Below are positions 6,108 through 62,113 of a stretch of DNA of 64,000 bases, piece by piece; the stretch's first letter is position 1; each line of letters starts with the position of its first letter. The stretch comes from a bacterium. GTDB lineage: Bacteria; Zhuqueibacterota; QNDG01; JAGLOF01. The stretch covers positions 27,967 to 91,966 of the forward strand of contig JAFGRY010000005.1 in NCBI GenBank assembly GCA_016934955.1, given 5' to 3'. Both the position numbers and the translations under genes were made by a program. The notes under the pieces are model-generated. The model saw nothing but the letters and a program-made list of their open reading frames with translations, did no database searches and was not told where the DNA came from.

Positions 6108-6328
6108 CGGTCTGATCGTATATTCCGCACGCCGGATGAATTCATTGACCGAAATCGTTCTGTCGCCGACGCGTGCCAGAATCTGCTCCGCCGCTTCCGG
6201 AGCCCGGTCTTTCCCGCATCTGCTCAGGCAGAGCGCCGTTAAAATTGATATGGACAGCAGGGCGAACCCGTGCTGTCCATACCGTCGTTTCCGAGTAATG
6301 ATATCTCTTCTCCGTGTCAGGTAATACC

Positions 6329-10884: not shown

Positions 10885-10974
10885 ACGAAACAACCTCATA
10901 TAGTAACGATTATTGTACACCATCATCCGGCGTCGGGCCGGCCATGATCCTGTTTTCTCTCCGGTCCCGGCGGC

Positions 10975-42043: not shown

Positions 42044-42059
42044 TGGGTGCCCGGTCCTT

Positions 42060-43526: not shown

Positions 43527-43542
43527 GCAGCACCCCGCTCCT

Positions 43543-44898
43543 CTACGGGTGGAGAAGCGACGAATTGGTGTTGATCGCGTATTGAATCGCTTTCAGGGCC
43601 TCATCAACGGATATCTTTCCGTCGATGGCGGCCGAGAGATTGTAGGAGAACACGTCGGAGATGCGCGTGTAATTTTCCAGGGTGGGCCGGTAGACACCGC
43701 TGTTCAGTAACTCGGCAAAGGTCTGGAGGCCCGTGTGCCCGGCCATGTATGCCGAATCGGCGTAGACCCTGCTGCTGGCGGGGAGATACCCGCCTTCATC
43801 GTAGAGCAGCTTCTGATTGTCCTCCTGAAGGGCGAATCGAATAAAGGCCAGCGCCTCCTCTTTTTTCTCGGAATACTTCGAGATCATCAAATTCCATCCG
43901 CCGAACACGAACGATTTCGGAGACCCGGCAAAATGAGGAAGGGGCGCAATGCGCAGATACCGCATCTTTTCCGAATCCTCCATTATCGTATTATACTGGG
44001 TGAGGAACCCGGGCCACCCCCGGACGAATACGGCGTCATGCCGCAGCGCGTACTGGTACCCGGTATACTCATCGAATTTAAGTACGTCCCTGGGGGTCAT
44101 GCCGTATGTCTGCACCATATCGACCAGCATCTGGATGGACCGGCGTACCTGGGGAAACTGTACGCTCACCGAGTCTTCAAAGAAGACCCTGTCGGCGATC
44201 GGTGCGATCCCTTCAAAAAAACTGCAGGTGAGCCCTTCAAAATGGTCGGCGGGGAAAATATAGAACGGGTTATTGTGCCCCCGCTGTTTGAGCCGTGCGT
44301 TCAACGTGATGAACTCTTTCCAGGTAAGTGAATGTTCAATTCCGGCAATCACCTTCTCGGCGTCGGGGAGTGTCCGGATAATGTCTTCCCGATAATACAT
44401 GATGCTGATATCGGTATACAATGGGATCGCATAGAACTGCTGCTGGTAATAGCAGGACTGGGTGACGTGTTCAATGAGCTCGCTGCGTTCCTGGAGGGTA
44501 AAATAGTCATCCAGCGGCTGAGACCAGCGGGAAAAACGGGGCACCCAGATGACATCTACGGCAAACAGATCGATGCGGTTGGATTTGCTGCGAAGCGACC
44601 GGGCCAGCAGCTCTTTGCGGTCATTGGTGCTGAACTTGCTGAAGGGAAGATTGATCGGCACCACTTCGATTCGGCCGGCGTACAATGCATTGAACCGGTC
44701 GATGATCCGCTGATGAGCCTCGGAAATATTATCCACATAGTACACTTTTACAGCCGGATCATTGTCGGACGTATATTCGGTGTAAGGGACCACCAGAAAA
44801 AACACGATAATCACGGCGGTGATGAAGAGGGACAGCACTAAAAACACGGATCTGCTGAGATTCTTGCGCACTGAATCCACACGATCTCCTCGTTGCAT
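43543..44898 (-). CDS. Membrane-anchored extracellular solute-binding protein (family 1, sugar-binding type), no cognate ABC permease/ATPase nearby
   Basis: 451 aa with an N-terminal TM anchor (VFLVLSLFITAVIIVFFLVV). It has the length and pattern of ABC sugar SBPs (DLFAVDVIWVPRF, FVFGGWNLMISKYSEKKEEALAFIRF). It sits 16 nt upstream of the kinase gene. Confidence 0.7.
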   Translation of the reverse strand: MQRGDRVDSVRKNLSRSVFLVLSLFITAVIIVFFLVVPYTEYTSDNDPAVKVYYVDNISEAHQRIIDRFNALYAGRIEVVPINLPFSKFSTNDRKELLARSLRSKSNRIDLFAVDVIWVPRFSRWSQPLDDYFTLQERSELIEHVTQSCYYQQQFYAIPLYTDISIMYYREDIIRTLPDAEKVIAGIEHSLTWKEFITLNARLKQRGHNNPFYIFPADHFEGLTCSFFEGIAPIADRVFFEDSVSVQFPQVRRSIQMLVDMVQTYGMTPRDVLKFDEYTGYQYALRHDAVFVRGWPGFLTQYNTIMEDSEKMRYLRIAPLPHFAGSPKSFVFGGWNLMISKYSEKKEEALAFIRFALQEDNQKLLYDEGGYLPASSRVYADSAYMAGHTGLQTFAELLNSGVYRPTLENYTRISDVFSYNLSAAIDGKISVDEALKAIQYAINTNSSLLHP

Positions 44899-45064: not shown

Positions 45065-45778
45065 TCACCGGCGGAGTCCGGCGCCGTGTCCGAGCAGCGA
45101 TGAAACGGTGACGAACCGGTACCCCCGGGCACGCAGACCGGCGATCACCCGCGGCAGCGCTTTGCGGGACGCCGCGCCCCCCGGATACATGACATGAAGG
45201 AGAATGATCGCTCCCGGTTTCGCCTCTTCGAGAATCCGGGCCGTCAGTTCGGAGGCGCTGCCGGCAATCCCGGGACGCGATTCGGGCTCGATGGACCACA
45301 TGACCGTGGTTCTGCCGGTGCGCGCCAGGATCCAGGGGAGGATAAAGAGCTTCTTGCCGAAAGGAGGACGGAACAGAATCGGTCCGGTCTGTCCGGCGTT
45401 TCTGATCGCCCGGTCGGTCCTTTCGATCTCTTCACGTATTCGGGAAGGACTTTTCAGGATCAGCCTGGAATGGGAGTAGGAATGGTTGCCCAGTTCATGT
45501 CCAGCCTGAACAATCATCGCGGCCAGGTCAGAATGTTCGTCCGCCTCTTGGCCGGTGACAAAGAATGTGGCCTCGACATCCCCCTGCCGCAGCAGGGCGA
45601 GCACCGTATCCGTATAGGCCCGGGAAGGTCCGTCATCGAAGGTGAGAGCGATGAGCGAATCGGCTGTTTGCACGAACGCAACGATCTTTCCGAACAACTG
45701 ATGGTTCCGGGATTTGTGGTACGGCCAGAGCAGGGCCGCAAGACCGAGCAGCACTACCGGGACGACGATCTTTTTCAT
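45065..45778 (-). CDS. Polysaccharide deacetylase (CE4, NodB homology domain)
   Basis: 237 aa with a signal/anchor. NodB motifs include LTFDDGP, HELGNHSYSH, FRPPFG and IILLHV. Confidence 0.85.
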   Translation of the reverse strand: MKKIVVPVVLLGLAALLWPYHKSRNHQLFGKIVAFVQTADSLIALTFDDGPSRAYTDTVLALLRQGDVEATFFVTGQEADEHSDLAAMIVQAGHELGNHSYSHSRLILKSPSRIREEIERTDRAIRNAGQTGPILFRPPFGKKLFILPWILARTGRTTVMWSIEPESRPGIAGSASELTARILEEAKPGAIILLHVMYPGGAASRKALPRVIAGLRARGYRFVTVSSLLGHGAGLRR

Positions 45779-45889: not shown

Positions 45890-46231
45890 TTATTCCCTGA
45901 AACTCGCCACCGCTTCGTCCACTGTATCGAAGCACTCGAATATCGTGATCAGTTTCGTGATCATCAGCAGGCTGTTCACTTTTTCCGAGGCGCCGCAGAT
46001 CTTGAATACCCCGCCGCTGTTCTTGGAGGATGTGAGGCATGCCATGAGCATGCCCAGACCTTTGCTGTTCACCCATTTCACGTGGGAAAGATCGGCGACG
46101 ATTTTTTTAGTCTTTTCTTCCAGCAGCTCCTTGACTTTCATATGGCAGCTGTCAGTTTCACTGCCTCCCATGAGATTGCCTTTGACGGTGAGAACCGCCA
46201 CATCATCGACCATTTTTACTTTTGCGTTCAT
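45890..46231 (-). CDS. STAS-domain anti-sigma-factor antagonist (RsbV/SpoIIAA-like)
   Basis: 113 aa with the typical STAS layout. The conserved phospho-acceptor region reads DLSHVKWVNSKGLGMLM. Confidence 0.85.
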   Translation of the reverse strand: MNAKVKMVDDVAVLTVKGNLMGGSETDSCHMKVKELLEEKTKKIVADLSHVKWVNSKGLGMLMACLTSSKNSGGVFKICGASEKVNSLLMITKLITIFECFDTVDEAVASFRE

Positions 46232-46262
46232 AGCGCACCTCCATATATTCCGAAAAGGGATG

Positions 46263-47561
46263 TTACATTCTCTTTATCACCATTAATGTGATATCATCGA
46301 ACTGTTCCTGCGTACCGGCGAAAAGGCCTATCTCTTTTATCACCTCGTCGACAATGTCATCCGCCTTTTTCACCCGCAGGCGCTTTGCCAGGTTCCAGAG
46401 CCTCTCTTCTCCATACTCCTCCTGCAGTTCATTTATCGCTTCCGTCACTCCGTCTGAATAGACAACCAGTACTTCCCCCGGCGCGAGCGTACAGGTATCT
46501 TCCGGATAGTCGAATTGTTCCAGCATGCTCAGGACAATACCGGCGGTACACAATTCCGTGTGCTCACCGTTTCCGCGGACGATAAAGGGCCGGTTGTGTC
46601 CGGCGTTAGCATACACGATGGAGTGTTCGTTCACATCGAGTATTCCATAGAACAGAGTTGCGAATTTGTTTGCCTCAGTATTTCGATACAGCAGCCGGTT
46701 GGAATGGTTGAGACATTCGCAGGGACATTGCACCAACAGCGCCTCCGTGCGGATAGTCGCCTGCAGATTGGACATCAGCAGGGCCGCCGGGATTCCCTTG
46801 CCGCAGACATCAGCGACACAGAAAGCGAGCCGGTGCTCATCGATGGAAATAAAATCGAAGTAGTCGCCGCCTACCGCTTTTGCCGGATAGCTCACCCCGG
46901 CGATGTCGTATCCGTTTATGGACGGAGCCGCTTTCGGCAGAAGGCGGGTCTGAATTTCAGCCGCCAGCCGATGCTCTTCCTGTATACGGGTAAGCATCTG
47001 CTCCTGTTCCAACAGACGGGCGTTTTCAATAACCTGCGCCGATTGAGCCGCGATAATGGACAGCAGCCGCTGATCTTCTTCGGAAAATCCCTCATCCCCT
47101 TTCTTGTTGAAACATGAAATCAGCCCCATCATCTTGCCCTTTTTAAACAGGGGAACGCACAGCAGCGATTTTACCTGGACACCGTCCCGCGGCATCGCCT
47201 GAAATCGTTCATCGGTCTGCAAATCGTTGACAAGGAGCGGTTGCCGGTGTTTCAGCATCCACCCGGTCAGCTGGGTGTCGAGCCGATAGGGGGCTGCAAC
47301 CCTGCTCTGATCCGCTTCCCTGATCATGGTCTGAAAGGGATTGTCCGATGCCTCCTCCCTCAGAATCATCACCGCCGCCTGTTCAACATGAAAATGCTTT
47401 ATACATTTTTTAATTATCAGCGTTTCGATGGTGCCCAGTTCCATTGTTGAAGAGATAGTCGTCGAAATTTCGTTGAGTATCGACAGTTCTTCCACTGCAC
47501 GTTTCAGACGGAGATTTTCCTGTTTTATCGAATCTTTGCTGTCAGGGGTATCGGCGCTCAT
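46263..47561 (-). CDS. GAF-domain PP2C/SpoIIE-family serine phosphatase (RsbU-like)
   Basis: The likely start is MSADTPDSK at 47561; the longer ORF-track N-terminus overlaps the PrsW gene. A GAF-like region (ILNEISTTISSTMELG..LLCVPLFKKGKMMGLI) precedes PP2C motifs (AVGGDYFDF, VADVCGKGIPAALLMS, ANAGHN, YSDGVTEA, FDDITLMV). Confidence 0.85.
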   Translation of the reverse strand: MSADTPDSKDSIKQENLRLKRAVEELSILNEISTTISSTMELGTIETLIIKKCIKHFHVEQAAVMILREEASDNPFQTMIREADQSRVAAPYRLDTQLTGWMLKHRQPLLVNDLQTDERFQAMPRDGVQVKSLLCVPLFKKGKMMGLISCFNKKGDEGFSEEDQRLLSIIAAQSAQVIENARLLEQEQMLTRIQEEHRLAAEIQTRLLPKAAPSINGYDIAGVSYPAKAVGGDYFDFISIDEHRLAFCVADVCGKGIPAALLMSNLQATIRTEALLVQCPCECLNHSNRLLYRNTEANKFATLFYGILDVNEHSIVYANAGHNRPFIVRGNGEHTELCTAGIVLSMLEQFDYPEDTCTLAPGEVLVVYSDGVTEAINELQEEYGEERLWNLAKRLRVKKADDIVDEVIKEIGLFAGTQEQFDDITLMVIKRM

Positions 47562-47614
47562 ATACACTCCGGTGATTGGGGTACGGTACCACATATAATC
47601 GCACAGGGGTTCCC

Positions 47615-48622
47615 TCATGCTTTTTTGACAAGATATATTTGCCACAAATCCCTGGTACTGGTATGAATCAGCGGGGCCAGCGCGATTTTGCCCGTTTTCC
47701 CGATAGCTTTCTCCAGGTATGCAAGTTCCTCCAGCTTCTTTTCCACTTCGACATCTCTGGCAATGCCGAACCCGGCACCCTGGGCAAGCAGAATTCCCTT
47801 GGCCCGGACAGCCAGCTCGAGATGAATCCTGAGGTAACAAAGCATATCCGCGAGGACCAAGCCCGTAAACCGTTCTCCCAGCGAATGAAGATACACTCCG
47901 ATATTCGTATCGGAAACACTTCCTTTGGTGATAATCTCCAGCGCGGTTACATCTGAATCCAATCCCTGTTCCAGCCACGCCCTCAGCAACACTTCACTTC
48001 TGGTGAATACCAAAATAAAGGCCAGCGGCATTAGAACGAGCTGAATGACGGTGATAAGCCTGGGATCAAGAATAAGATGATTGAAAAACGAATGAATAAT
48101 AATCGCTCCGGCCAGTCCCGGCAGAAAATGGTACAGCTGCACTCGTCCGCTTCTATCAGAAATGCTCTTTGCAGATATTGCCATGAGAGCTACCGTACCT
48201 CCATGCATCACCGCAGTGCCGAAACCGCGAATAATCCAGAGGAACATGCCTCCGGAGGGCAGATTGATAAGATATTCACTATTTTCAATCACCGCAAAAC
48301 CAGCCCCAACGGCAAAGCCGTAAATAGCGGCATCGACCATGAAACCAATCTTGTCATTTTTCAGTAAATAATACAGACAGCTTCCTTTTACCAGCTCTTC
48401 CAGAACAGGCGCGATCACCTGAGTATATACGGAGATAGGGATTCCGAATGTATTCAGGCTCCAGCTGGTAATGACATAGCAGGTGATTCCCGCGCCGCAT
48501 CCTGTAAGAACGAAGAACAGTACAGATCTCACCCGAACCAGCTTGTAACTGTCCAGGACAACGAGTGTCACCAGAAAAAACAGAACCGGGATCAGGCTTA
48601 TCCCCGCATCGGCGATTCCCAT
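47615..48622 (-). CDS. PrsW-family intramembrane metalloprotease with C-terminal cytoplasmic extension
   Basis: 335 aa with ~7 TM segments. PrsW-type motifs include PVLEELVKGS, FAVGAGFAVIENSEY, GFGTAVMHGG and IIHSFFNH. Its start codon overlaps the upstream stop by 1 nt (TAATG). Confidence 0.7.
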   Translation of the reverse strand: MGIADAGISLIPVLFFLVTLVVLDSYKLVRVRSVLFFVLTGCGAGITCYVITSWSLNTFGIPISVYTQVIAPVLEELVKGSCLYYLLKNDKIGFMVDAAIYGFAVGAGFAVIENSEYLINLPSGGMFLWIIRGFGTAVMHGGTVALMAISAKSISDRSGRVQLYHFLPGLAGAIIIHSFFNHLILDPRLITVIQLVLMPLAFILVFTRSEVLLRAWLEQGLDSDVTALEIITKGSVSDTNIGVYLHSLGERFTGLVLADMLCYLRIHLELAVRAKGILLAQGAGFGIARDVEVEKKLEELAYLEKAIGKTGKIALAPLIHTSTRDLWQIYLVKKA

Positions 48623-51570
48623 TATAATAATCTCAGTGAAACCATCACTTCTTTTGACGCATGTCGATCTTCAGCAAAAGCCCATGCATATCCGAGAGAA
48701 AGTGTGGACCGGAGTAATGAAAATGTCACCAGCCTCATATCCATCTGGCCACCCACACTCACATATCTTCCTGAAACAGCCTTGCTGTCAACATTGGTGA
48801 CCAGGACGGTGGAGAACAAGGCGAATCGGGCCCAACGGGCATAGAAACTTGGAGTACCCCATCGTTCGAACCGAACCGGCGGAAATGTCCATTCCACGGT
48901 GGTTTTCGCATAATTCGTCCCAGCAATAGCATTCAGTTCACATCCGGGGAAACTGTAATAACTGCGGTACCGTTGTATTCGCCGGTAATCCACCCAGTTA
49001 TTACCGAATCCACCGAAATAAAAGTTGGCGAAGGGCTCTCGCCTTTTCCCAATGGAATAGCCTGCTGAATTTCGAATCCAGATTGAAGAGTGATGCCAGG
49101 GCAGTAAAAAACCGACATCATGATTGAAATAAAAACGGGGGTACATGGTTCCGTTCACATAATTCAAGCTGGAGGCGATTTTCCAGGCGACCCCCTGCTC
49201 ATTGTTCACCGCGCCAAGAGAATTGAGCAGATTGGTATAATCCAGGCTGGCGCTGGCGCTCAGCAATTTATCATACGAGGCGTTGACATTCTGATAGTCG
49301 GGAAGCTTTTCAAGTCCCCCGTACCCCGCGGTCTGAAGGGAATACTGCAGTCTTCGCGGATTATCGTATATCAGATAATTGGAGTAGGCGATCCCCAGAG
49401 AATACCCTTTCCGGCTTGTCTTGGTCGGCCCGAACAGATCATAAAAATCGGTCCCGTTATATGTCCCGAAAACATTCACATTCCAGTGCTGGTAATCAAA
49501 ATTGGCATGCAGCCGCTCATCCTCGGGCAGCAGCCGGTTCGGCGTGTACAGTGCGGAAACATGCAGGGCATCGATGCCGCCCAGCGGATCCATCAGATCT
49601 ATCCGCATCCCATAGGCGGGAAATTCCTTGTATCCTTCCACCACCGGATAAATTGACGCCAATCTCAGACTCCCGAGACTTTTATATGCTCCAGCCGACA
49701 CGGCAAGGGTATCGAGACTGATCCTTTCAGGATTCGGAGGCTCCAGCGTCCAGGTCGTCAGTACAGGATGTTCGCGGAGGACTCTGTTCCCCAAGAGCGT
49801 GATCGAATCCACTTGACAGAGAGTATGTGGAATCAGCACGGGAGTGAATCCTTTCCCTGAATAGCGAAATACGAGCAGTGTATCAGGTGATATGACAAGG
49901 GGACGGAAAAAACCGGTCTCGCTGTTGCTGACGGGATAGGTCATTTTCTCCGCGAAATCATATCGGTATACATTGGAAACGCCGGTGTAGTACGAAGTGC
50001 CGTAAAGATATCTTCCATCAGGTGAAAAGACAAAATTCAAGGGTGAATTGCCCTCGAATTCCTCCAGCACCTCATAGTCCCGCTCGCCCCGCAGCAGATT
50101 TCGCATGTCGAACTTCACCAGACGCTGGTCTCCGTTGATTTCCGCCAGTGAGCCGCTCACCATGGTACCGTCGGGTGAAATATCAATATCGTACACATCC
50201 TTTCCATACGGCAGGGCAAGAATTTCCTGAAAGGAATCGTAGGGAGGCGGTATCCGCACCAGCGTTGAGTAGCCGTCGTGGTGACGCACACCCCAGATCG
50301 ATTCATCCGCTCCGTTCAGGGCCAGGTCCCCGATTCTCGCCTTTTTCATCAGCACCCTGCATTTGCCGGTGGACAGATCCACTGCATTGAGGCCTCGCCA
50401 CTGGGCGCTGTTGTGAGTAGTAAAATAGATCTCATCCGTGGACGAATTATAGACAAGTGATGTAACATAGTACAGACCGGGCGATGCCACATTGCAGATT
50501 TTATGGATACGGCCGGACTCCAGATCGATAGCGGCGATCTGAGAAATCTGCCCGGGATAATCGATCCCCATATATATTCTGTTCCTCTTTCTGTCCAGAC
50601 AGGCGTTGGAGACCGAGCCCAGCGGCTGCCGGCTGATGTTCCGGTACGGAGTCACCGGTTGTTGCCGGATAAATGCCAGGTTCTGCCGCTGCCATTCATG
50701 TTCCCATTGCACCCATTTTCGCCATTCTTCATCGAGACTGACGCTATATACGTTACTGAACTGCCGGGTAAAGTACCGCTTGCTGTCCCCGGTACGGTTG
50801 TACCACTTCAGGAGCTTATCGATTCCGTATCTATAGGCAAGATAACTGATGAATCGGGTTCCATACAAATATGAATTGATACCCATCTGAAAATCTATCG
50901 TTGTTCCTTCGGACTCGAGACCGACAACATCGTAAAAATGACTGGAGTCTCTGACCATTGACCGGAACACCATCTCATCATAGCCGTTCTGGGCTCTGCC
51001 AATTCCGCCGGACATCCAGGTCTCCATGAATACGGCAATGCCCTCATGATACCAGCGGGGTGAATACCAGCGGGGAGTGGTGAGATAACTGTACCACATG
51101 GACAGCGGATTTTCAGCCGTTGGATTCACTTTGCCGCTGAACAGCTTTCTAAATAAACGATCGGATGCCGCAGCTTTATCTGTAGCCAGGACATGCACCA
51201 GTTCATGATTCATTACCCAGTTCATGCGTTCATTCGCCGGGGACACCTCATACACATAATCATAAGGTTCGAGACCGATGTTGAGAAAATTCCAGGGGAT
51301 CGTATTGGTACCACCCGATCCATAATCATTGAAATCCTGCAGCAGTATCGTAACTTCTTCTGAAGGAGTATAATCAAACAGACGACGGTGGAATGAAAGC
51401 GAATTTTCAAAGCAACGGGCAATATGCGGAATGAATACTTCATGATTTTTGTCGTAATATATAAGGCGGAGGTTTTTTGTTCTCAACGAATAAAGCGGCA
51501 CCTGTGACCGGGCGCCGTTGTACATCAAAAGCAGCGAAAGCAGAATCATTACCCGGGGGAAACGGATCAT
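48622..51570 (-). CDS. Secreted fusion protein: Peptidase_MA-type zinc metallopeptidase + PD40/TolB-like beta-propeller + Omp85-like C-terminal beta-barrel
   Basis: The likely start is MIRFPRVMILLSLLLMYNGARSQ at 51570. A HELVH motif is followed ~50 aa later by WYHEGIAVFMETW. PD40-like strings are present (FSPDGRYLYGTSYYTGVSNVYRYD; ISPDGTMVSGS). The C-terminal ~350 aa are beta-strand-like, with FYFGGFGNNWVDYRRIQRY..AGTNYAKTTVEWTFP. Confidence 0.55.
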   Translation of the reverse strand: MIRFPRVMILLSLLLMYNGARSQVPLYSLRTKNLRLIYYDKNHEVFIPHIARCFENSLSFHRRLFDYTPSEEVTILLQDFNDYGSGGTNTIPWNFLNIGLEPYDYVYEVSPANERMNWVMNHELVHVLATDKAAASDRLFRKLFSGKVNPTAENPLSMWYSYLTTPRWYSPRWYHEGIAVFMETWMSGGIGRAQNGYDEMVFRSMVRDSSHFYDVVGLESEGTTIDFQMGINSYLYGTRFISYLAYRYGIDKLLKWYNRTGDSKRYFTRQFSNVYSVSLDEEWRKWVQWEHEWQRQNLAFIRQQPVTPYRNISRQPLGSVSNACLDRKRNRIYMGIDYPGQISQIAAIDLESGRIHKICNVASPGLYYVTSLVYNSSTDEIYFTTHNSAQWRGLNAVDLSTGKCRVLMKKARIGDLALNGADESIWGVRHHDGYSTLVRIPPPYDSFQEILALPYGKDVYDIDISPDGTMVSGSLAEINGDQRLVKFDMRNLLRGERDYEVLEEFEGNSPLNFVFSPDGRYLYGTSYYTGVSNVYRYDFAEKMTYPVSNSETGFFRPLVISPDTLLVFRYSGKGFTPVLIPHTLCQVDSITLLGNRVLREHPVLTTWTLEPPNPERISLDTLAVSAGAYKSLGSLRLASIYPVVEGYKEFPAYGMRIDLMDPLGGIDALHVSALYTPNRLLPEDERLHANFDYQHWNVNVFGTYNGTDFYDLFGPTKTSRKGYSLGIAYSNYLIYDNPRRLQYSLQTAGYGGLEKLPDYQNVNASYDKLLSASASLDYTNLLNSLGAVNNEQGVAWKIASSLNYVNGTMYPRFYFNHDVGFLLPWHHSSIWIRNSAGYSIGKRREPFANFYFGGFGNNWVDYRRIQRYRSYYSFPGCELNAIAGTNYAKTTVEWTFPPVRFERWGTPSFYARWARFALFSTVLVTNVDSKAVSGRYVSVGGQMDMRLVTFSLLRSTLSLGYAWAFAEDRHASKEVMVSLRLL

Positions 51571-51740
51571 CGTACATTTCCCCCTCTCTTTATCTATCGT
51601 GCGGAGAGCAGCCATATTTATCTCCCATTGGTGAGATACATGCGCAATCCGATTCTTTCAGTCTGATGAATGCACGAAAAGAACGTGGCCCGTTCCTTGA
51701 CAAAATAGATATATTCTTCCTGCCATGTGGAGATAGCACT

Positions 51741-51772
51741 CCGCGGAGGGGATGCAGTACTCCCCTCCGCGG
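51741..51772 (-). terminator. Perfect 12-bp GC-rich stem-loop downstream of the repeat-protein gene (terminator-like, no U tract)
   Basis: CCGCGGAGGGGA (51741-51752) and TCCCCTCCGCGG (51761-51772) are exact reverse complements with an 8-nt loop. The structure sits ~45 nt beyond the stop at 51818. Confidence 0.5.
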
Positions 51773-51817
51773 TTGCATCTTACGTCGTTTTGATGCATGT
51801 GTGCGACAAATACACTG

Positions 51818-53962
51818 CTATTGTATCGAACGGTCAGGATTCGTGGATCTCATCCGGTCCAGTGTCTCGGCTCTCTCAACGGGTTGCATTCTCGCCAGGG
51901 CGTCCGTCCGCTCGGGAATTGCCATCATTCCCAGCGTTTCAACACGAACAGGAAGGGACAGTCTGTCGAGGGTGAACGCCCGAATACCCGGAGCCATCTT
52001 CTCGAGGGAAAGCGCCCGTTCCGACAGCGGCAGTCGCTCCAGCACCAGCGCCCGGTCCGCTATGGCGAGTTTTTCCAGGGCCTCCACTCGTTTCTCAAGC
52101 GCCATCTGTCCCAGCACATCGGCTCTCTCAGGAAACGCCATTTTCTCAAGCGAAAAAACCCTGTTATTAATCGACATTTTCTCGAGCTCGCCGGCACGTT
52201 GTGGAAGCGATAATTTTGCCAGATCTTCATGGAATGCCGCTATACTGGCCATTTTCTCGAGAGTCTCTGTTCTAACTGCCGGAGCGAGCTTATCCAGCGT
52301 TTCTTCACGGAACATCTGAGCCATGCGGTCCAGCGTCTGAGCTCTTTTCTCAAGAGTCAGTTTCTCGAGTGAAGGAATACGATCTGAGATTGCCAGCTTT
52401 TCAAGCACGCCTGCACACTGAGCGACCGGCAGCCTTTCCAGTGTTTCGATCCGTAATTCCGGAGCCATTCTCTCAAGAGCTTCAAACCTTTCTTCTGACG
52501 CCATCTTTTCTAGAGAGAGGGCACGGTCCGGGAGCGATAGTCGGCTCAATGATTCGACCCGGATGGGAATCGACATCTTTTCCAGACTGAGATACCGCAC
52601 CGGCAGAGAGAGTTTCTCGAGCGATTCCACTCTCTTCGGCAATGAGAGTTTTTCCAGTGATTCCACTCTCGAGGCATCACTCATTCTCTCAAGGGCTTCG
52701 CTCCGCTCCACACTCTTCATCCTCTCCAGAGCGGGGATTCTTTGATCCAGTGCCAGTTTTTCCAGAGACAGCGCCCGTTCCCTCACTGCCATTTGCTGCA
52801 ATATATCGGTCCGGCTCTCAAGCGACATTCTTCCCAGACATTCAGCGCGAGGCTCCAACGCCATTCTTTCCAGGGTGGCCGTCTGCACCGGAAGGCTGAG
52901 TTTTTCAAGAGACGAAAGACGAACAGGAAGCGCGAGTCTCTCAAAGGTCAACGCCCGATCGGGCAGACTGAGCTTTTCCAGGGAACTGAAACGCTCTGCA
53001 TCAGCCATTTTTTCCAGAAACATGGTTCTTTGTGTGATCGCCATCCGTTCCAGACATTCATTTCTCAGCGGCAGTGACATCTTATCGAGCGTTGCAGCCC
53101 CGTCAGGCAGAGACAGTTTTTCCAGGGCATAGGTCCGTTCGATCGGTGCCAGTTTTTCCAGGGTCGCCGCTCTTTCTTCAGGAGCCAGTTTTTCCAGACT
53201 CGTCTGATCGGCTTCCAGCCGCTTCATTCTTTCCAGAGTCTCGGTTTTTATCGCCGGGGCCAGTCTCTCCAACGATTCAGCCTGTATGGCCTTTGCCATG
53301 CAATCCAGTGTCAGTGCCCGTTCGGTCGGTGCCATCTTCTGCAAAACGTCCATCCGGTCAGCAGGTGCCATCATTTCCAGGGTTTCCGTACGCCTGGAAA
53401 CGGCCATCTGTTCCAAGTACGGCGAGAGCGGACGAGCGATGCTCATCTTCTCGAGAGTGGACAGCCGTTCTTCCAGGGCCATTTTTTCCAGGGTGAGCAC
53501 CTGATCGGGAAGAGCCAGTTTCTGCAGGATATCAATTCTTTCCGGAAGCGCCAGTTTTTCAAGTGTAAGGGCTCTCTCGACAGGCACCATCCGGGCAAGA
53601 GCCTCATCCCGCTGCGGTACAGCCATTTTCATGAGAACCGCGGCACGATCCTGACTGGACATGCGCCCCAGCTCCTCGGCCCGCTCGGGGGCTGCCATCT
53701 TTTCCAGAGACTCCGCATACTCTTTCAGTGATACGATCTGCGTCGTCTCATCGGTGTGAATGCTTTTGATCACAACGTCAGCGTCGGTAATCTGTTCAGC
53801 ACGAAATTTTTCTGCTTTTTTTGCGCCACCGATGGTACCGCTGACTTCAAGTGACTTGGGCCATGGATAAATCGCCGCTAAATACACCACAACAATAATG
53901 GCCACGACTGACACACCGACAATCAGTCCCCACTGCCGTTTGTTTCTTTCATTCTTACTCAT
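51818..53962 (-). CDS. Membrane-anchored periplasmic protein composed of ~50 tandem 12-residue repeats (unknown family)
   Basis: 714 aa. The start is preceded by GGAAGGAGGAACACC. A basic N-terminus and one TM (WGLIVGVSVVAIIVVVYLAAIY) come first. An uninterrupted LEK[LM]xxPxRxxx array then runs to the C-terminus. Confidence 0.7.
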   Translation of the reverse strand: MSKNERNKRQWGLIVGVSVVAIIVVVYLAAIYPWPKSLEVSGTIGGAKKAEKFRAEQITDADVVIKSIHTDETTQIVSLKEYAESLEKMAAPERAEELGRMSSQDRAAVLMKMAVPQRDEALARMVPVERALTLEKLALPERIDILQKLALPDQVLTLEKMALEERLSTLEKMSIARPLSPYLEQMAVSRRTETLEMMAPADRMDVLQKMAPTERALTLDCMAKAIQAESLERLAPAIKTETLERMKRLEADQTSLEKLAPEERAATLEKLAPIERTYALEKLSLPDGAATLDKMSLPLRNECLERMAITQRTMFLEKMADAERFSSLEKLSLPDRALTFERLALPVRLSSLEKLSLPVQTATLERMALEPRAECLGRMSLESRTDILQQMAVRERALSLEKLALDQRIPALERMKSVERSEALERMSDASRVESLEKLSLPKRVESLEKLSLPVRYLSLEKMSIPIRVESLSRLSLPDRALSLEKMASEERFEALERMAPELRIETLERLPVAQCAGVLEKLAISDRIPSLEKLTLEKRAQTLDRMAQMFREETLDKLAPAVRTETLEKMASIAAFHEDLAKLSLPQRAGELEKMSINNRVFSLEKMAFPERADVLGQMALEKRVEALEKLAIADRALVLERLPLSERALSLEKMAPGIRAFTLDRLSLPVRVETLGMMAIPERTDALARMQPVERAETLDRMRSTNPDRSIQ
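51863..53707 (-). repeat. Degenerate 36-nt (12-codon) in-frame tandem repeat array, ~50 copies
   Basis: Example units are LEKLSLPDRALT, FERLALPVRLSS, LEKLSLPVQTAT, LERMALEPRAEC and LGRMSLESRTDI. On the plus strand this appears as recurring ttttccag / tttctcgag strings. Many shadow ORFs are open in all plus-strand frames. Confidence 0.9.
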
Positions 53963-54067
53963 GGTGTTCCTCCTTCCCGTTTATAATACGATGGTGCACA
54001 TTCTCGTAACACTAACAATACAGCTTCACCGCGAATATGTTGTTACCGATTCCAATTGTTTCAGGCG

Positions 54068-54859
54068 TTAGTGTAGATCATCGAGCGATATCGTCTTCGA
54101 GATGATTACATCCCCCCCTTTCTGTATGTCAAGACGTATTTCCTGCCTGGAGAACGACATTCCTTTAAAAAGAATGAGGCACCTGTACCTGCCGAACGCG
54201 CTAAAAGCTGTGCGATCGACGGTTTTCACAAACGAAAGTCCGGCAGTATCGGGTGACGACACTCCGAAAAAATTGATCGCCTGCGGATTATAGGAAAAGG
54301 TAAGTGTCATCGGTGATGCAGCATCTATATCTACCGTGAACCCGATAATAGTATCGTGAATGCTTGCATCTATGGCCCCGGTAATCCGGTCTTCGTTCAG
54401 TGTCTGAGAAAACAGCGGCTTGAATCCTCCCGATCCATGCAGGCCCACGGTACCCAGAAAATCGTCAGTGACCGGCGCATACTGATCCTCAGCGATCGGC
54501 GCGATAAGTATCAGCATGACTCCGACCGCAACTCCAGCCGTGAACGTAACCACCCGAGCGGGTGAAAAGAGCCGGCTGAATCCGTTGACGGCAGTTTTCT
54601 TACCCGAGGCGGTCGATCGCGCTGCATAGCGGTTGGTATCAATGGAGTTCATGATGGTTTTTATCAAATTGTCGGAAGGATCGGGAGTCGACATCCGGGA
54701 GAGGGTACGGGAGATGGTAAGCTGATGAGTATATTCCCTTTTAGCCTCGGAGTGTCCGGCTGTATAGGAGTCGAGCCATTTTTTCTCGTGGTCCGAAAGG
54801 CCTTGCTCAATCTCCTTTGCCAGCAGTTTTTTAAACCGTCTCTTCGACATATTCTGCAT
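54068..54859 (-). CDS. Putative single-pass membrane anti-sigma factor
   Basis: 263 aa. Its start overlaps the ECF sigma gene end by 20-29 nt (ATG 54859 or 54850). It has a helical N-terminal ~90 aa, one TM (VVTFTAGVAVGVMLILIAPIA), and a ~140-aa extracytoplasmic domain. No zinc HxxxCxxC motif is present. The call rests mainly on position and topology. Confidence 0.5.
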   Translation of the reverse strand: MQNMSKRRFKKLLAKEIEQGLSDHEKKWLDSYTAGHSEAKREYTHQLTISRTLSRMSTPDPSDNLIKTIMNSIDTNRYAARSTASGKKTAVNGFSRLFSPARVVTFTAGVAVGVMLILIAPIAEDQYAPVTDDFLGTVGLHGSGGFKPLFSQTLNEDRITGAIDASIHDTIIGFTVDIDAASPMTLTFSYNPQAINFFGVSSPDTAGLSFVKTVDRTAFSAFGRYRCLILFKGMSFSRQEIRLDIQKGGDVIISKTISLDDLH

Positions 54860-55403
54860 ACCCCTTTTCTATACAGTATTTCCTGATCACTTGCCGGGCC
54901 GAGAAAAGGCGGGACTTCACTCTCTTCTCCGGGATATCCATGATATAAGCAATATCCGCATAGGGCAGTTCGATAAAATATTTCAGGACAATCACTGCTC
55001 TGTATATAGTATCCAGAGAATCTATTGCCGCATGGAGAATGCGGTCACGTTCCCAGGTTTCCACCATCTCGGCGGGCGACCGCCCGGATCCCGCCTGTTC
55101 ATGCTCCAGTGTTCCTGTTTTACAGTTTCGTTCTGCAAAGTTCAGTGCTTCATTGACTGCGATACGGTAGATCCAACTGAAAAACTTATATGTCTGCTTG
55201 TATCGACCGAGATTCTCATACACTTTCAGAAAGACCGACTGGGCAATATCCTCGGCATCATTATAATTATGAACAATCCCGAAGACCAGTTTAAATACCT
55301 GTCGCTGGTACCGTTCAACCAGTATCCTGAACGTTTCCGTGTCACCCTGTAGACAGCGCCGGACACATTCTCTATCAGTCAGTTCTGTCATAAATACAGG
55401 CAC
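54831..55403 (-). CDS. ECF-type (group 4) RNA polymerase sigma-70 family factor
   Basis: 190 aa. Region 2 reads FRILVERYQRQVFKLVFGIVHNYNDAEDIAQSVFLKVYENL..WIYRIAVNEALN. Region 4 reads RAVIVLKYFIELPYADIAYIMDIPEKRVKSRLFSAR. There is no region 3. Confidence 0.9.
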   Translation of the reverse strand: MPVFMTELTDRECVRRCLQGDTETFRILVERYQRQVFKLVFGIVHNYNDAEDIAQSVFLKVYENLGRYKQTYKFFSWIYRIAVNEALNFAERNCKTGTLEHEQAGSGRSPAEMVETWERDRILHAAIDSLDTIYRAVIVLKYFIELPYADIAYIMDIPEKRVKSRLFSARQVIRKYCIEKGYAEYVEETV

Positions 55404-55428
55404 CTTGAAAAAAAGTTGGTCATCGGTG

Positions 55429-55716
55429 TTACCGGTCAGCTATTGAAAAAATCAAGTCGAATCCGGCATAATGGAAAATATCCCGGATATGGTCAGTGAG
55501 ATTGATCAGTTTCAATTCACTGCCGCTTTCCTTGAGCCGTTTCTGGGTTGCCAGCAGCACCCCCAATCCACTGCTGGAGATATATTCCAGCGTGGCAAAA
55601 TCGACGGTTGCGGTTTCCGATACCCGGTCGAACATCTCCAGTGCATACGCTTCCCTGCTGGCGTCAAACCGACCCTCCAGAATCAGCAGATCCTTTTCAA
55701 TGGTGATCTGAAACAT
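55429..55716 (-). CDS. STAS-domain anti-sigma-factor antagonist (RsbV/SpoIIAA-like)
   Basis: 95 aa. The conserved region VDFATLEYISSSGLGVLL contains the phospho-acceptor Ser. It overlaps the upstream kinase gene by 20 nt. Confidence 0.85.
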   Translation of the reverse strand: MFQITIEKDLLILEGRFDASREAYALEMFDRVSETATVDFATLEYISSSGLGVLLATQKRLKESGSELKLINLTDHIRDIFHYAGFDLIFSIADR

Positions 55717-56131
55717 AGGTATTCTCCAGATTTTTTCTCAGGGTGATTATGCTGCGCCTGTTCTCATAGTGGTAATCAACCTCATCCATCAGTTTATGGA
55801 TCAGGGGGATGCCGAGCCCTCCTACTCTCCTCTCCTCTATTTTCTTTTTGAAGTTATATGGCTCGCGCATACGGATATCGAAACGGTCCACATCAGTATC
55901 GATGAGGGTGATCACCAGGACATCCTTATCGCGCACAAGTGATATCGATACCGGATTGTGATTGTTCTTCACATATTTTACCGAGTTGGTAAAGAGTTCC
56001 TCCACTGCAAGATTGACGGCGAACACCGTCCTGGCATCCAGTTCGGCGGTGTGCGCAAATGCATCGATCAGAAGGTTGATATGTTCGAGCGATTCCATGG
56101 TGCGGGGGAACGATGCTGAGACTGATGCCAT
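55697..56131 (-). CDS. Anti-sigma regulatory factor, RsbW/SpoIIAB-like serine protein kinase (HATPase_c_2)
   Basis: 144 aa. The N box reads AVEELFTNSVKYV and the G2-like region GGLGIPLIHKLMDEVDY. Size and layout are typical of partner-switching kinases. Confidence 0.8.
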   Translation of the reverse strand: MASVSASFPRTMESLEHINLLIDAFAHTAELDARTVFAVNLAVEELFTNSVKYVKNNHNPVSISLVRDKDVLVITLIDTDVDRFDIRMREPYNFKKKIEERRVGGLGIPLIHKLMDEVDYHYENRRSIITLRKNLENTYVSDHH

Positions 56132-56791
56132 AGGGACTCCCTGATTCCAGATCTCTTCCGTGTCCGGCAGTAAAATCCCCGGAAGAAAGACATGAACCCC
56201 ATCTCAATATCCACAGCAATGAGGTGGACGGGACGAGATCACGAACACACGTCCTGTCCGGAAACGTGCAGCATACCAGATACATCGTACACCGATCGAT
56301 GCGATTCTGAAAGAGAACCGATACCGGCACAATAACGAGAAACAGGTACAGGGCCAATAAATCGTACACACCGCGGAAGCGAATGAATATGGATATGAAT
56401 ATCAACGATGCATGAACCGCAATCAGCTGCAGTGTTCGATGAATGATACCACTGTATTACCCCGAATGTCCCTTTCCGAAGGATACAGACATCCCGAGGC
56501 AAACAAGATCAACGGCCGTCAGGGCGCAGAACACAGGATGTGTATAGTTGTAATAGGGAAAATATATGTTAAGATACACATTTTTTTATCAAAATCAAAA
56601 TGGTAATATTATTCTATCCGATCTGCATATCCGCCATACAAGGGGGTTTTTCCCACTCCTTTAAGCATGCTGCAGGGGATACTTTTTCTTCATGAGCACC
56701 TGCAGGCGGAGCAGTCCGGACCGGGATTCCTGTTGCCGCTGCAGCGGGGATGAACTCGCCGGTAACGGTCATCTCTGCGACGTCTCATGTC

Positions 56792-59128
56792 TCAATGTTT
56801 TGCGGGAAAATTCATTTTTTGTATCAATTCCTGAAAGCGCGGTTCATCACGCAGCAGATCCCATTTGGGATCGACATTGAGATACACCAGATCCTGCATC
56901 CGCTCCTCCCAGGCAACCTCCAGCCAGTCCAGGGCCCGCTCGGTATCCTCGGCATATGCATAGTAGGCGGCAATGGACAGCGAGTGAGCACGGTTGGAAC
57001 GGGCCTCCAGGGCCTGTGCCACCCGGCGCATGGCTTCCCGGTACCCGCCTTCGCGGTACCCCTGATTGAGGGCGTTGAGAAGATCATCAGAGCCCTTTAT
57101 CTCATATACATTTCGTCTTACGGCAAGCGCTTCGGTGTCATTCCCTCTGAATTGATAGCATTGCGCCAGGTTGCCGAGAGCATCGGTAAAATCGGACTGA
57201 AGTGCGATACTCTCTTTATACTGCTCGATGGCTAGATCATAGCGGCGGGAACGCTTGTATACCTGCCCCAGATAGGCCTGATGCATGGCATTCATCGGAT
57301 CCAGCTGAATGCCTGCTTTCATCTGGGCCTCAGCCTCTTCAAACCGTCCCATTCCGGTCAGGAACAGCCCGTAAAAGATCCGCGCCTGGGCATAATTCGC
57401 ATTAAGCGTCAATGCCTTTTTAAACTCCTCTTCAGCCTTCTCCCAGTCAAATAAATACCAGGTGGCAAACCCCGCCATGCCGTAATGGCCCTCAGCTAGT
57501 GTGCTGTCCAGCTCAAGACAACTTTCCACAGCTGCCTTCCAGTTCGGCATAATCTGCCTGGGAAGCATTCCAAAATATGTCATCGCAGCCCAATACATCG
57601 CAATACCGTGATATGCCGGAGCATAATCCGGATCCTTTTGCAGGGCCAGCTCAAAATATCCCCGTGACAATTCAAGATCCTGTCTGGAGAATTTATTCCA
57701 GTGGAACCGGCCTTTCAGCAAGGCTTCATAAGCATCAGGATCAACCTCCCTTGATCTGGTGAGGCGTTGTTTTTCTTTCTCCGTAACGGTAACGGTGGTA
57801 TTGTGAGCAATCTCCAGTGCCAGCTCGCTGTACAGGTTCAGAACATCACACCTGGCCCGCCTGTAGGTATCTCCCCAGATATTTCGCTCCACCGGGAGCG
57901 CATCGATCAACTGAAGCCGGATGCGGACGGTGTCACCGGCTTCGTAGACCGTGCCCTCCACCAGGGCATCCACTTTCAGCTCCCGGGCGATCTCGGGCAG
58001 AGATTTTACGGTGGTCTTGTACCCCATAATCGATGTCCGTGAGATGATCCGTTTGAATCCCTGAATCTGACCCAGCTGGCCGATCAGCTCATCGGTTACA
58101 CCGTCCGCAAAAAATTCCTTGTCCGGATCACCGGTCATGTTTTTCAGCGGCAGCACCGCAATGGATTCAATCGCATCGGCCCGGCCAGTGCATAGATGAA
58201 TCCCTGACACAGAGAGAATAACAGCAAGCACGGTGAAACTCGTATAGAGGATGACTCTTTTTCTTCTCCGCAGTTTCGCCTTCCTCAGCCGGGACTGAAT
58301 ATCGTCCGGCATGATCCCGGCGTTGATCGACTGCAGATCCTCCAGCAGCTTTTGCATTGTCTGGTAGCGTGCATCAGGACTTTTTTCCAGCGCTTTGCAG
58401 ACCAGCTGCTCCAGCGATTCGGGAATATCCGGATTGACCCGGGAGACCGCTTTCGGCTCTTCATTCAATATTGAATACATCACCGCCTGCTCGTAATCGC
58501 CCCTGAAGGGCCGCTCGCCGGTGAACATCTCGTAGAGGATGACGCCCAGGGCCCAGATGTCCGTGCGATGATCCACCTCCGTGCCCTGCATCTGCTCCGG
58601 CGACATGTAGCCGATGGTGCCCAGGGTCGTGCCCGCCCTGGTCAGCAGGCTGCGGTCGGACAGCTTGGCCAGGCCGAAATCGACGATCTTGACCGTGCCG
58701 TCCCCGGTGATGAGGATATTGGCCGGCTTGATGTCGCGGTGCACGATGCCTTTGGTGTGGGCCTTATCCAACCCCCTGGCGATCTGGACGGCGATCTCCA
58801 TCGCATCCTCAACCGGCAGCGGGCCCCGGCTTATTCTATCCTTTAAGGACTCGCCCTCATAACAGGCCATGGCAATATAGAGCTGACCGTCCTCGCTCTC
58901 ATTGATCTCATAAACGGTGCAGATATTGGGATGATCCAGGGCCGAGGCTGCCTTCGCTTCGTGAATGAAGCGCTGCTTGTCCTCCGGGGATTGGCTCAGA
59001 TGGGGCGGCAGAAACTTGAGGGCCACGAAACGGTCCAGTTTAATGTCAATTGCTTTGTAGACCGTGCCCATCCCGCCGCGGCCTAGTTCTTCGATGATTT
59101 TGTAATGAGATATGGTTTTGCCGATCAT
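56792..59128 (-). CDS. Ser/Thr protein kinase with TM segment, TolB-N-like extracytoplasmic domain and TPR repeats (paralogue 1)
   Basis: The likely start is [26 protein letters not shown] at 59128; the ORF-track extension overlaps the upstream gene. Kinase motifs include [17 protein letters not shown] and [13 protein letters not shown] segment ([16 protein letters not shown]) is followed by [22 protein letters not shown] and then TPR-like repeats. Confidence 0.9.
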
Positions 59129-59237
59129 ACGCCATTTCTCACGAAGGCCTTGCGGGATATCGCGTCCCGATACTTCTGGAAAGTACCGCCGCTGGCGTGA
59201 TTTCCCAGGATCGTGTGAAGGTGAACCGCCATGCCTG

Positions 59238-61949: not shown

Positions 61950-62113
61950 TGGTGAAGAACCTCAATAGTTCGTAAGGAATATATGGTTTTTCATAGCAAA
62001 AAGTCATTGCGGCCGAGTCCGTTTAAAACACTTTTATTTACCCCCGTAATGATGGCCGAAGTTACCATCCATGTGTCACTTACCGCATTTACAACCGGCA
62101 TCTTGATTTCATG

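Follow-up and report, generated by a model that had tools for sequence, protein, structure and literature searches.

The 64,000-nucleotide stretch of bacterial DNA analyzed here (hereafter the window; contig JAFGRY010000005.1, from a member of the Zhuqueibacterota) contains, at positions 45890 to 56131, a packed set of genes in which one extracytoplasmic function (ECF) sigma factor is accompanied by components of two kinds. The first kind comprises a single-pass membrane anti-sigma factor, a membrane-anchored repeat protein that we call REP, a predicted outer-membrane protein that we call g06, and a PrsW-family protease. The second comprises the typical parts of a partner switch: an RsbW-like protein, two STAS-domain proteins (STAS1 and STAS2) and a GAF-PP2C phosphatase. 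We propose that this cluster is one member of a gene module that is widespread in the Fibrobacteres-Chlorobi-Bacteroidetes (FCB) superphylum and serves to control a single SigW/RpoE-like ECF sigma factor. We put the chances of this proposal at about even.

The gene order is conserved. All seven homologues of the sigma factor that we examined, with identities between 67% and 44%, are encoded in the same gene cluster. In each, genes for an RsbW-like protein and STAS1 precede the sigma factor gene, and genes for a protein of about 255 amino acids, a protein of variable length, a protein of about 900 to 1000 amino acids and a PrsW protease follow it; orthology in these clusters was confirmed by tblastn. 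We also scanned metagenomes with a g06 alignment, with over 537 relatives found and 80 loci returned, and annotated these loci by using hidden Markov models built from the first six clusters. A PrsW gene comes after g06 in 50 of the 55 metagenomic loci that have enough downstream sequence. Among the 29 loci with at least 5.5 kb of sequence 5' of g06, the upstream region contains the ECF sigma factor gene in 27, REP in 27, STAS1 in 26, the anti-sigma factor gene in 25 and an RsbW domain in 23. Chance is excluded as an explanation, because the order is kept in independent loci. An earlier note on this DNA had made its reading hinge on the gene set being conserved as a neighborhood, and the counts from both the sigma-factor side and the g06 side bear this out.

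The core set consists of STAS1, the ECF sigma factor, the anti-sigma factor, REP, g06 and PrsW, with the RsbW-like gene present in about 80% of the loci. Genes for PP2C, STAS2 and Ser/Thr kinases are frequent around the cluster, but their position is variable; PP2C and STAS2 are accessory genes whose place shifts from one locus to another. Relatives of g06 from named taxa belong to KSB1 (the closest, at 63% identity), Latescibacteria, Bacteroidota, Chlorobi (Chlorobiaceae), Ignavibacteria (Ignavibacteriales) and Gemmatimonadota.

Organization of the gene cluster

The features of the cluster are as follows, in the direction of transcription.

55697-56131, minus strand: RsbW-like protein, 144 amino acids; Pfam HATPase_c_2, 1.6e-20, 73.8 bits against a cut-off of 27.4
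55429-55716, minus strand: STAS1, 95 amino acids; Pfam STAS_2, 3.6e-11
55392-55420, minus strand: predicted ECF-dependent promoter P1, ACCAACTTTT-N13-TGTATTT, abutting the sigma factor ATG
54831-55391, minus strand: ECF sigma factor, 186 amino acids; Pfam Sigma70_r2 and Sigma70_r4_2, nothing else
54068-54859, minus strand: predicted single-pass anti-sigma factor, 260 or 263 amino acids; no Pfam match; one transmembrane helix at residues 104-122
54017-54042, minus strand: weaker predicted promoter copy P2, upstream of REP; match to the ECF-type motif
51818-53962, minus strand: REP, 714 amino acids; N-terminal transmembrane helix at residues 13-31; 12-residue periodicity
51741-51772, minus strand: stem-loop between REP and g06; 12-bp stem, 8-nucleotide loop, GC-rich, no U tract
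48622-51615, minus strand: g06, predicted outer-membrane protein, 982 or 997 amino acids; signal peptide; three-domain model; sub-threshold Pfam matches only
47615-48622, minus strand: PrsW-family protease, 335 amino acids; Pfam PrsW-protease, 2.8e-18, 66.6 bits against a cut-off of 23.5
46263-47618, minus strand: GAF-PP2C (SpoIIE-type) phosphatase, 451 amino acids; SpoIIE, 2.8e-50 (171 bits against 25), and GAF_2, 1.2e-17
45890-46231, minus strand: STAS2, 113 amino acids, accessory; Pfam STAS, 1.3e-12

The nine co-directional genes and the hairpin that the earlier note had read as one packed cluster are all found where it had placed them, with agreement among the listing of open reading frames (ORFs), the genes called on the same contig in public data (Logan SRR13394437) and Pfam/NCBIfam scans. 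The overlaps that it had reported are likewise present: 20 nucleotides between the RsbW-like gene and STAS1, 20 or 29 nucleotides between the sigma and anti-sigma factor genes (depending on the choice of ATG), and a TAATG junction between g06 and PrsW. To these we add an ATGA overlap between the PrsW and PP2C genes. Such overlaps suggest translational coupling.

Two alternative assignments were rejected. An upstream GTG start would extend the phosphatase to a 571-amino-acid ORF, but the gene is called from 47618 and encodes 451 amino acids. A polysaccharide deacetylase gene at 45065-45778 is absent from the related clusters and was not retained as a member. Among the window ORFs of at least 200 amino acids that were scanned against Pfam, none encodes another sigma factor, in agreement with the earlier note. 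Comparison of the nine cluster proteins with PADLOC models gave no meaningful match to anti-phage defence systems.

Some metagenomic loci depart from this arrangement. REP-g06 pairs in L013 (5020-8894) and L014 (9300-12970) have no ECF gene upstream, no PrsW gene downstream and no promoter motif (see below) before REP; the genomes concerned may have a complete cluster as well, with these pairs as second copies. In L091 (16434-19302) and L092 (17586-20416), PrsW is followed by two M16 peptidase genes, and both loci have a phosphofructokinase gene upstream.

The ECF sigma factor and its predicted promoter

By its sequence, the sigma factor is an ECF (group 4) protein. It has regions 2 and 4 only, and it scores 91 bits with the superfamily model NCBIfam sigma70-ECF (TIGR02937), whose cut-off is 42.9. 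None of the NCBIfam equivalog models (SigW, RpoE and others) reaches its cut-off, and the nearest solved relatives are AlgU, RpoE and SigW. The called gene encodes the 186-amino-acid ATG form; an exact look-up of the 190-amino-acid product of a GTG start gave no match.

The intergenic gap between STAS1 and the sigma factor gene is filled by a motif, ACCAACTTTT-N13-TGTAnTT, that abuts the sigma factor start codon in 42 of 48 loci. The distance from CAAC to GTA is invariant at 17 nucleotides, and in 28 cases the sigma factor ATG lies 3 nucleotides after the motif. No locus has the motif on the reverse strand, and in shuffled sequences it turns up in 1.8 loci on average and in 6 at most. REP is preceded by a second copy in 28 of 51 loci, and an ECF-type promoter motif precedes g06 in just 3 of 82. 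Strict matches in approximately 1 Mb of locus DNA number 76, of which 61 lie before the ECF gene or REP. Because an 'AAC' -35 element is typical of ECF promoters, we read the motif as a predicted autoregulatory ECF-type promoter. The RsbW-like and STAS1 genes lie upstream of, and so outside, the transcription unit that would start there.

The earlier note had suggested a search for a promoter of this type farther upstream, before the RsbW-like gene, where no motif is conserved across the loci. The gap in question (56132-56791, 660 bp, between the RsbW-like gene and the last of the neighboring kinase genes) is noncoding and has an AT-rich center. Promoters of the SigW/RpoE type (G[AG]AAC-N14-18-CGT) were also considered and rejected, as they occur upstream of cluster genes in only one to four loci per set; the window has one GGAAC..CGT match before g06, which is not conserved.

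Additional matches to the promoter pattern occur elsewhere. The fourth match in the window, at 6323-6350 (minus strand), lies about 215 nucleotides upstream of a 444-amino-acid ORF (4773-6107, minus strand) that has no Pfam match and adjoins a PorV-like gene. This ORF may be an additional member of the regulon. Matches inside the g06 coding region are found in the window (49000-49027, minus strand) and in L016, L068, L071, L076, L079, L082 and L084. They are probably false positives, because they are near-identical among related loci, as a conserved coding stretch would be; the match in the window differs in sequence from those of the related loci.

The anti-sigma factor and the REP protein

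The earlier note had regarded the 263-amino-acid protein as an anti-sigma factor candidate. A profile of the N-terminal 85 residues from 16 loci confirms this: over residues 5-77 it matches RsiW from the SigW-RsiW complex (5WUQ chain C, E = 4.6e-7), and it also matches RskA (E = 0.003). On this homology, we classify the single-pass protein of 260 or 263 amino acids as a class I anti-sigma factor with an RsiW-like N-terminal domain, one transmembrane helix and a predicted periplasmic C-terminal domain. The zinc motif HxxxCxxC is absent from the family, in which the corresponding positions read Y-L-x-x-N-P-E-A. The transmembrane helix is followed by a GT[IML][GA] motif. A homologue search with the anti-sigma factor found only the protein itself.

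REP is membrane-anchored with its N terminus inside, and the remainder is predicted to be periplasmic. Next to the membrane, it carries the motif GTIGGxxKAxKFRxEQIxDxDV, followed by approximately 53 copies of a 12-residue helical unit (identity of 0.36 at lag 12). Only the transmembrane helix and the juxtamembrane motif are conserved among REP orthologues; their repeats are unrelated and have a period of 7, 9, 12 or 16. REP scores 96 bits against Pfam MgtE_N (cut-off 25.9), in seven stretches. We set aside homology to MgtE_N as unlikely in view of the unrelated repeats of the orthologues and the prediction that REP faces the periplasm, and the score most likely reflects a similar pattern of short helical repeats.

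In L028, L033 and probably L041, an anti-sigma domain, a transmembrane helix, GTIGG and REP-type repeats are joined in a single protein, and there is no separate REP gene. Together with the shared motif, these fusions suggest that REP is related to the membrane and periplasmic portion of the anti-sigma factor and should act at the same step. The earlier note had suggested that REP belongs to an envelope input arm. This role can be kept only in part, since the ECF-type promoter before REP would make it at least partly an output or feedback element, and not an input alone.

The hairpin that the earlier note had marked after REP is well supported: its 12-bp stem is perfect, and its predicted energy is -33.9 kcal/mol (z = -6.8 in comparison with shuffles). 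A strong stem-loop occurs between REP and g06 in 47 of 53 loci, with a mean of -29.5 kcal/mol versus -17.7 kcal/mol for shuffled sequences. The structure is conserved, but the sequence is not.

The outer-membrane protein g06

Structure models were built from alignments of database homologues. The AF2 model of g06 (pLDDT 82, pTM 0.80) has three domains. In the N-terminal domain, HExxH and the glutamate of WYxEG are invariant. When modeled alone (with moderate confidence, pLDDT 67.7), this domain matches the M1 aminopeptidases IRAP, ERAP, F3 and PepN at 1.5e-6. However, the Pfam M1 and MA_2 matches are sub-threshold, the spacing from HExxH to the glutamate is 49 residues instead of 18, and there is no GxMEN motif. 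As modeled, the domain is related to the gluzincin peptidases of clan MA and lies outside M1 proper.

The middle domain is a beta-propeller that matches TolB (approximately 1e-8, TMt of approximately 0.5); it is not accompanied by the N-terminal domain of TolB, and its PD40 repeats are sub-threshold. The C terminus (residues 625-980) is modeled as a beta-barrel of about 16 strands, with 19.4 bits for Omp85_2 against a cut-off of 23.1 and with no POTRA domains. The signal peptide and the barrel model suggest that g06 is anchored in the outer membrane, and, by analogy with the topology of Omp85 proteins, the peptidase and propeller probably face the periplasm. More than 6259 homologues of g06 exist, and where the sources name them, they are called 'hypothetical' or carry a generic domain label only.

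The PrsW-family protease

The motifs EExxK, GFxxEN, MHG and HxxxN of the PrsW protein are conserved in 67 relatives. The protein scores 21.8 bits against the equivalog model of Bacillus subtilis PrsW (NF033739, cut-off 225), and so is not assigned as its ortholog. At its C terminus lies a conserved cytoplasmic domain of about 130 amino acids. A search with this domain gave 484 matches, and the near-full-length ones among the best 150 are all at the end of PrsW-sized proteins of about 335 amino acids; no other domain context appears among the near-full-length matches listed. In B. subtilis, PrsW is the site-1 protease of RsiW, along with 'other unidentified proteases', and RasP and Clp act afterwards (PMC4105308).

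Proposed release of the sigma factor

The identities of the genes, their order, the promoter motif and the fusions are observations. Our scheme built on them has a core of regulated proteolysis, feedback through the predicted promoter and a partner switch as a second gate, and we judge it about equally likely to be right or wrong as a whole. By homology and synteny, the RsiW-like anti-sigma factor would keep the sigma factor at the inner membrane. Release would come about by regulated proteolysis that is begun by the co-encoded PrsW, possibly with the assistance of g06, and is finished by a site-2 protease and Clp encoded elsewhere. The freed sigma factor would then transcribe its own gene and the anti-sigma factor gene from P1, and REP from the second promoter copy. 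The membrane anchor and juxtamembrane motif are common to REP and the anti-sigma factor, so REP most likely intervenes at the same step of proteolysis, whether as a co-substrate, a decoy or a shield. The stem-loop after REP may uncouple expression of REP from that of g06 and PrsW.

This scheme gives g06 and REP a part in regulation. They could instead be the main products of the regulon, namely an envelope repair or quality-control peptidase and a protective repeat protein, with sensing left to PrsW and the periplasmic domain of the anti-sigma factor. We consider this fairly unlikely. It would explain why over half of the loci have an ECF-type promoter before REP (28 of 51) and how REP-g06 pairs can exist without the sigma module in L013 and L014, and ECF operons often contain their own targets. 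By contrast, g06 is almost always without such a promoter (3 of 82 loci) and is parted from REP by the conserved stem-loop. It also appears to be translationally coupled to PrsW, and the fusion of REP to an anti-sigma domain in some loci places REP at the regulatory step.

The partner-switch proteins as a possible second gate

The nearest solved relatives of the RsbW-like protein are SpoIIAB and RsbW. Its family keeps the E..N of the N-box and the GGLG motif of the G2 box, and its score against the equivalog models is 40.6 bits (cut-off 145). We regard it as a candidate serine kinase or second anti-sigma factor. The STAS1 family has an invariant YISSAGLG motif, whose serine we take to be at the position of Ser58 of SpoIIAA, and STAS1 is directly upstream of the ECF gene in 26 of the 29 loci. 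STAS2 keeps the serine of NS-x-G-x-G, and in other loci its gene lies to one side of the cluster or the other. The PP2C motifs GGDxxD, DVxGKG, NAGH, SDG and DDxT are intact. In L062, the GAF-PP2C phosphatase is joined to an RsbW-like domain, a fusion that ties phosphatase, kinase-like protein and STAS1 into one module.

In the scheme that we propose, the RsbW-like protein, STAS1, the GAF-PP2C phosphatase and STAS2 would form a cytoplasmic partner switch acting as a second gate. Put most simply, the RsbW-like protein would bind to the ECF sigma factor, or to the complex that it forms with the anti-sigma domain, except when dephosphorylated STAS1 titrates the RsbW-like protein away, and expression of the regulon would then require two signals, one from the envelope and one from the cytoplasm. 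We infer a physical connection of the partner switch to the sigma factor, and a specific contact between the RsbW-like protein and the sigma factor seems to us possible but rather doubtful. In partial Mantel tests, distances among RsbW-like proteins and among ECF sigma factors co-vary beyond a phylogeny based on g06 and PrsW (r = 0.42, p = 2e-4). We treat this as a weak hint only, because the raw correlations fall within the range of published negative controls.

Several points weigh against the scheme, most of them against its second gate. The G1 box (DxGxG) of the RsbW-like protein is degenerate, reading DTDVD in the window and mostly D-x-D/N-V in its relatives, of which a few keep a G. Because these glycines are replaced in the window protein and in most relatives, the kinase activity of the protein is uncertain. 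In their published complexes, SpoIIAB and RsbW are reported to contact sigma region 3, which ECF factors lack. The RsbW domain is missing from 6 of the 29 loci, 2 of which (L071 and L084) still keep STAS1. The RsbW-like and STAS1 genes are upstream of the predicted sigma promoter, so their expression would not increase along with that of the sigma factor, an unusual arrangement for an anti-sigma factor that acts stoichiometrically. The '-10' of that promoter ends just 3 nucleotides before the sigma factor ATG, which allows for almost no leader and makes any start site or geometry assigned to the promoter tentative. Moreover, g06 and REP may be either sensors or mere products of the regulon. 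Raw mirror-tree correlations are 0.64 for the RsbW-like protein and ECF sigma factor and 0.41 for the ECF sigma factor and anti-sigma factor. These values are in or near the range of 0.5-0.6 published for negative controls. Specialists even take RsbW homologues as negative controls for ECF binding, and RsbW-like proteins have never been described as binders of ECF factors (PMC7406223).

In L071 (5637-6290) and L084 (5769-6410), an ORF of about 215 amino acids, read as a membrane protein with two transmembrane helices, lies upstream of STAS1, where the RsbW-like gene is missing.

Two other readings account for the same genes. In the first, which we think unlikely, the partner switch acts on proteolysis or the anti-sigma factor and not on the sigma factor: unphosphorylated STAS1 or the RsbW-like protein, for example, would dock on the C-terminal domain of PrsW or on the cytoplasmic domain of the anti-sigma factor and gate site-1 cleavage. 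This would give a role to the PrsW C-terminal domain, which has no other assigned role and, among the near-full-length matches listed, is found only on PrsW-sized proteins. It would also fit the observations that STAS1 is linked to the cluster more tightly than the RsbW domain (26 versus 23 of 29 loci) and is still present in L071 and L084, and that RsbW-PrsW distances co-vary (partial r = 0.56). Partner switches with a STAS protein as output are known, namely SypA, RbaV and BtrV (PMC8256260). Yet no precedent is known for control of an intramembrane protease by STAS or RsbW proteins, no fusion of this kind was found, and the co-variation statistic is weak.

In the second, which we hold to be improbable, the partner-switch genes belong to a separate pathway that is merely co-located and co-regulated with the ECF module, and their target is another sigma factor or a non-sigma protein encoded elsewhere. 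The btr genes of Bordetella set a precedent, since BtrU, BtrV and BtrW are encoded beside the ECF gene btrS and control secretion, not the activity of BtrS (PMC8256260). The same conclusion could be drawn from the lack of known ECF-binding RsbW-like proteins (PMC7406223), the exclusion of the RsbW-like and STAS1 genes from the sigma-dependent transcription unit, the changing positions of PP2C and STAS2, and the loci without an RsbW gene. Nevertheless, the adjacent order of the RsbW-like, STAS1 and ECF genes is kept at 67% to 44% sigma identity and in several phyla, which is hard to explain without a shared function, and no other sigma gene is present among the scanned window ORFs of at least 200 amino acids.

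We retain two-gate control of the ECF sigma factor as our working scheme. In its fullest form, the RsbW-like protein would be a second anti-sigma factor and the first of the HATPase_c_2 type to act on a group 4 sigma factor, the two signals would form a two-key AND gate, REP would be a decoy that resets the protease, and the whole would be a major, hitherto unrecognized stress pathway common to KSB1, Latescibacteria, Bacteroidota, Chlorobi, Ignavibacteria and Gemmatimonadota. That all of these hold together is a tentative idea that we would not expect to survive intact. If the RsbW-like protein does bind the ECF sigma factor, a classic anti-sigma family would be extended to the largest sigma group, and a natural two-input gate would become available that is useful for synthetic biology.

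Genomic surroundings of the cluster

Three tandem genes for Ser/Thr kinases with TPR domains lie directly upstream of the cluster (56792-63991, minus strand). Similar Ser/Thr kinases flank the cluster in L004, L010, L025, L039, L057 and L062. On the other side, positions 2049-44898 form a region for utilization of beta-glucan and other polysaccharides, with two GH16, three GH3, one GH30 and one GH5-CBM6 protein and a TonB-dependent receptor. The region also encodes PorV-like proteins, proteins with tails of the type IX secretion system (T9SS), SSF and MFS transporters, a sigma-54 two-component system with a solute-binding protein (40589-44898) and two ORFs of approximately 1160 amino acids without a Pfam match (7438-10926 and 25502-28987).

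Novelty and comparison with known systems

The earlier note had called the gene set an undescribed signaling system. As far as we could establish, this description stands: our literature searches brought up no account in which RsbW, STAS or PrsW is linked to an ECF sigma factor, and relatives of g06, where the sources name them, go by 'hypothetical' or generic names. We found no description of the CCAAC promoter motif in the literature. The main text of the ECF reclassification paper gives no RsbW, STAS or PrsW context; its supplements may contain an entry for this group. All of the parts are of known kinds; what is new, as far as we know, is their combination, along with the g06 family, REP and the promoter.

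ECF sigma factors and partner switches are two main signaling paradigms that are treated as separate, and here they are locked in one gene order. Much of the FCB superphylum, in which few regulatory systems have been studied, has kept this order. The g06 protein defines a family of more than 6000 homologues that combines an M1-like peptidase, a TolB-like propeller and a barrel, is linked to signaling and has no meaningful annotation. The system also offers handles for study: a predicted promoter, a periplasmic repeat protein that evolves fast and in some loci forms a fusion with the anti-sigma factor, and natural fusions that show which parts cooperate.

The closest likeness is to the SigW-RsiW-PrsW-RasP pathway of B. 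subtilis. Both systems have a SigW/RpoE-type ECF sigma factor, a single-pass anti-sigma factor that is RsiW or matches it, and a PrsW with intact motifs, and in both the sigma and anti-sigma factors are co-transcribed behind a promoter of autoregulatory type (predicted in our case). Unlike RsiW, the anti-sigma factor described here has no zinc ligands. The PrsW gene lies in the same cluster, and its product has an extra cytoplasmic domain of 130 amino acids. The host is a diderm, the peptidase/propeller/barrel and repeat proteins are added, and partner-switch genes are attached. SigW promoters have the motif TGAAAC..CGTA, whereas the motif here is CCAAC..GTA.

The SigB (RsbV-RsbW-RsbU/P) and SigF (SpoIIAA-SpoIIAB-SpoIIE) systems share with the cluster a HATPase_c_2 protein, a STAS protein with a conserved serine and a SpoIIE-type PP2C phosphatase beside a sigma factor gene. 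Our sigma factor, however, belongs to group 4, without region 3, and not to group 3. A separate membrane anti-sigma factor is present, the gene order is kinase-STAS-sigma instead of STAS-kinase-sigma, and the G1 box is degenerate.

As proposed for our cluster, the RpoE-RseA-RseB-DegS and FecA-FecR-FecI pathways relay an event at the outer membrane or in the periplasm to a single-pass anti-sigma factor and release an ECF factor by proteolysis. The components here are unrelated to DegS, RseB, TonB-dependent transducers and FecR, and the peptidase/TolB-like/barrel fusion of g06 has no known counterpart in the envelope-spanning ECF pathways of proteobacteria.

In Bordetella, the anti-sigma factor BtrA is a secreted protein. 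The btr system has no PrsW, membrane anti-sigma factor, outer-membrane protein or repeat protein, and its partner switch controls type III secretion. It is nevertheless similar to our cluster in that a Gram-negative ECF gene (for BtrS) is clustered with genes for PP2C, STAS and RsbW-like proteins (BtrU, BtrV and BtrW) (PMC8256260). Finally, the EcfG-NepR-PhyR system of Alphaproteobacteria is the known case of an ECF factor governed by partner switching that depends on phosphorylation (PMC7826278). Its switch is built from a response regulator that mimics a sigma factor and a small anti-sigma factor, and it involves no STAS, HATPase_c_2 or PP2C protein and no proteolysis, in contrast to the genes that surround the ECF sigma factor described in this report.

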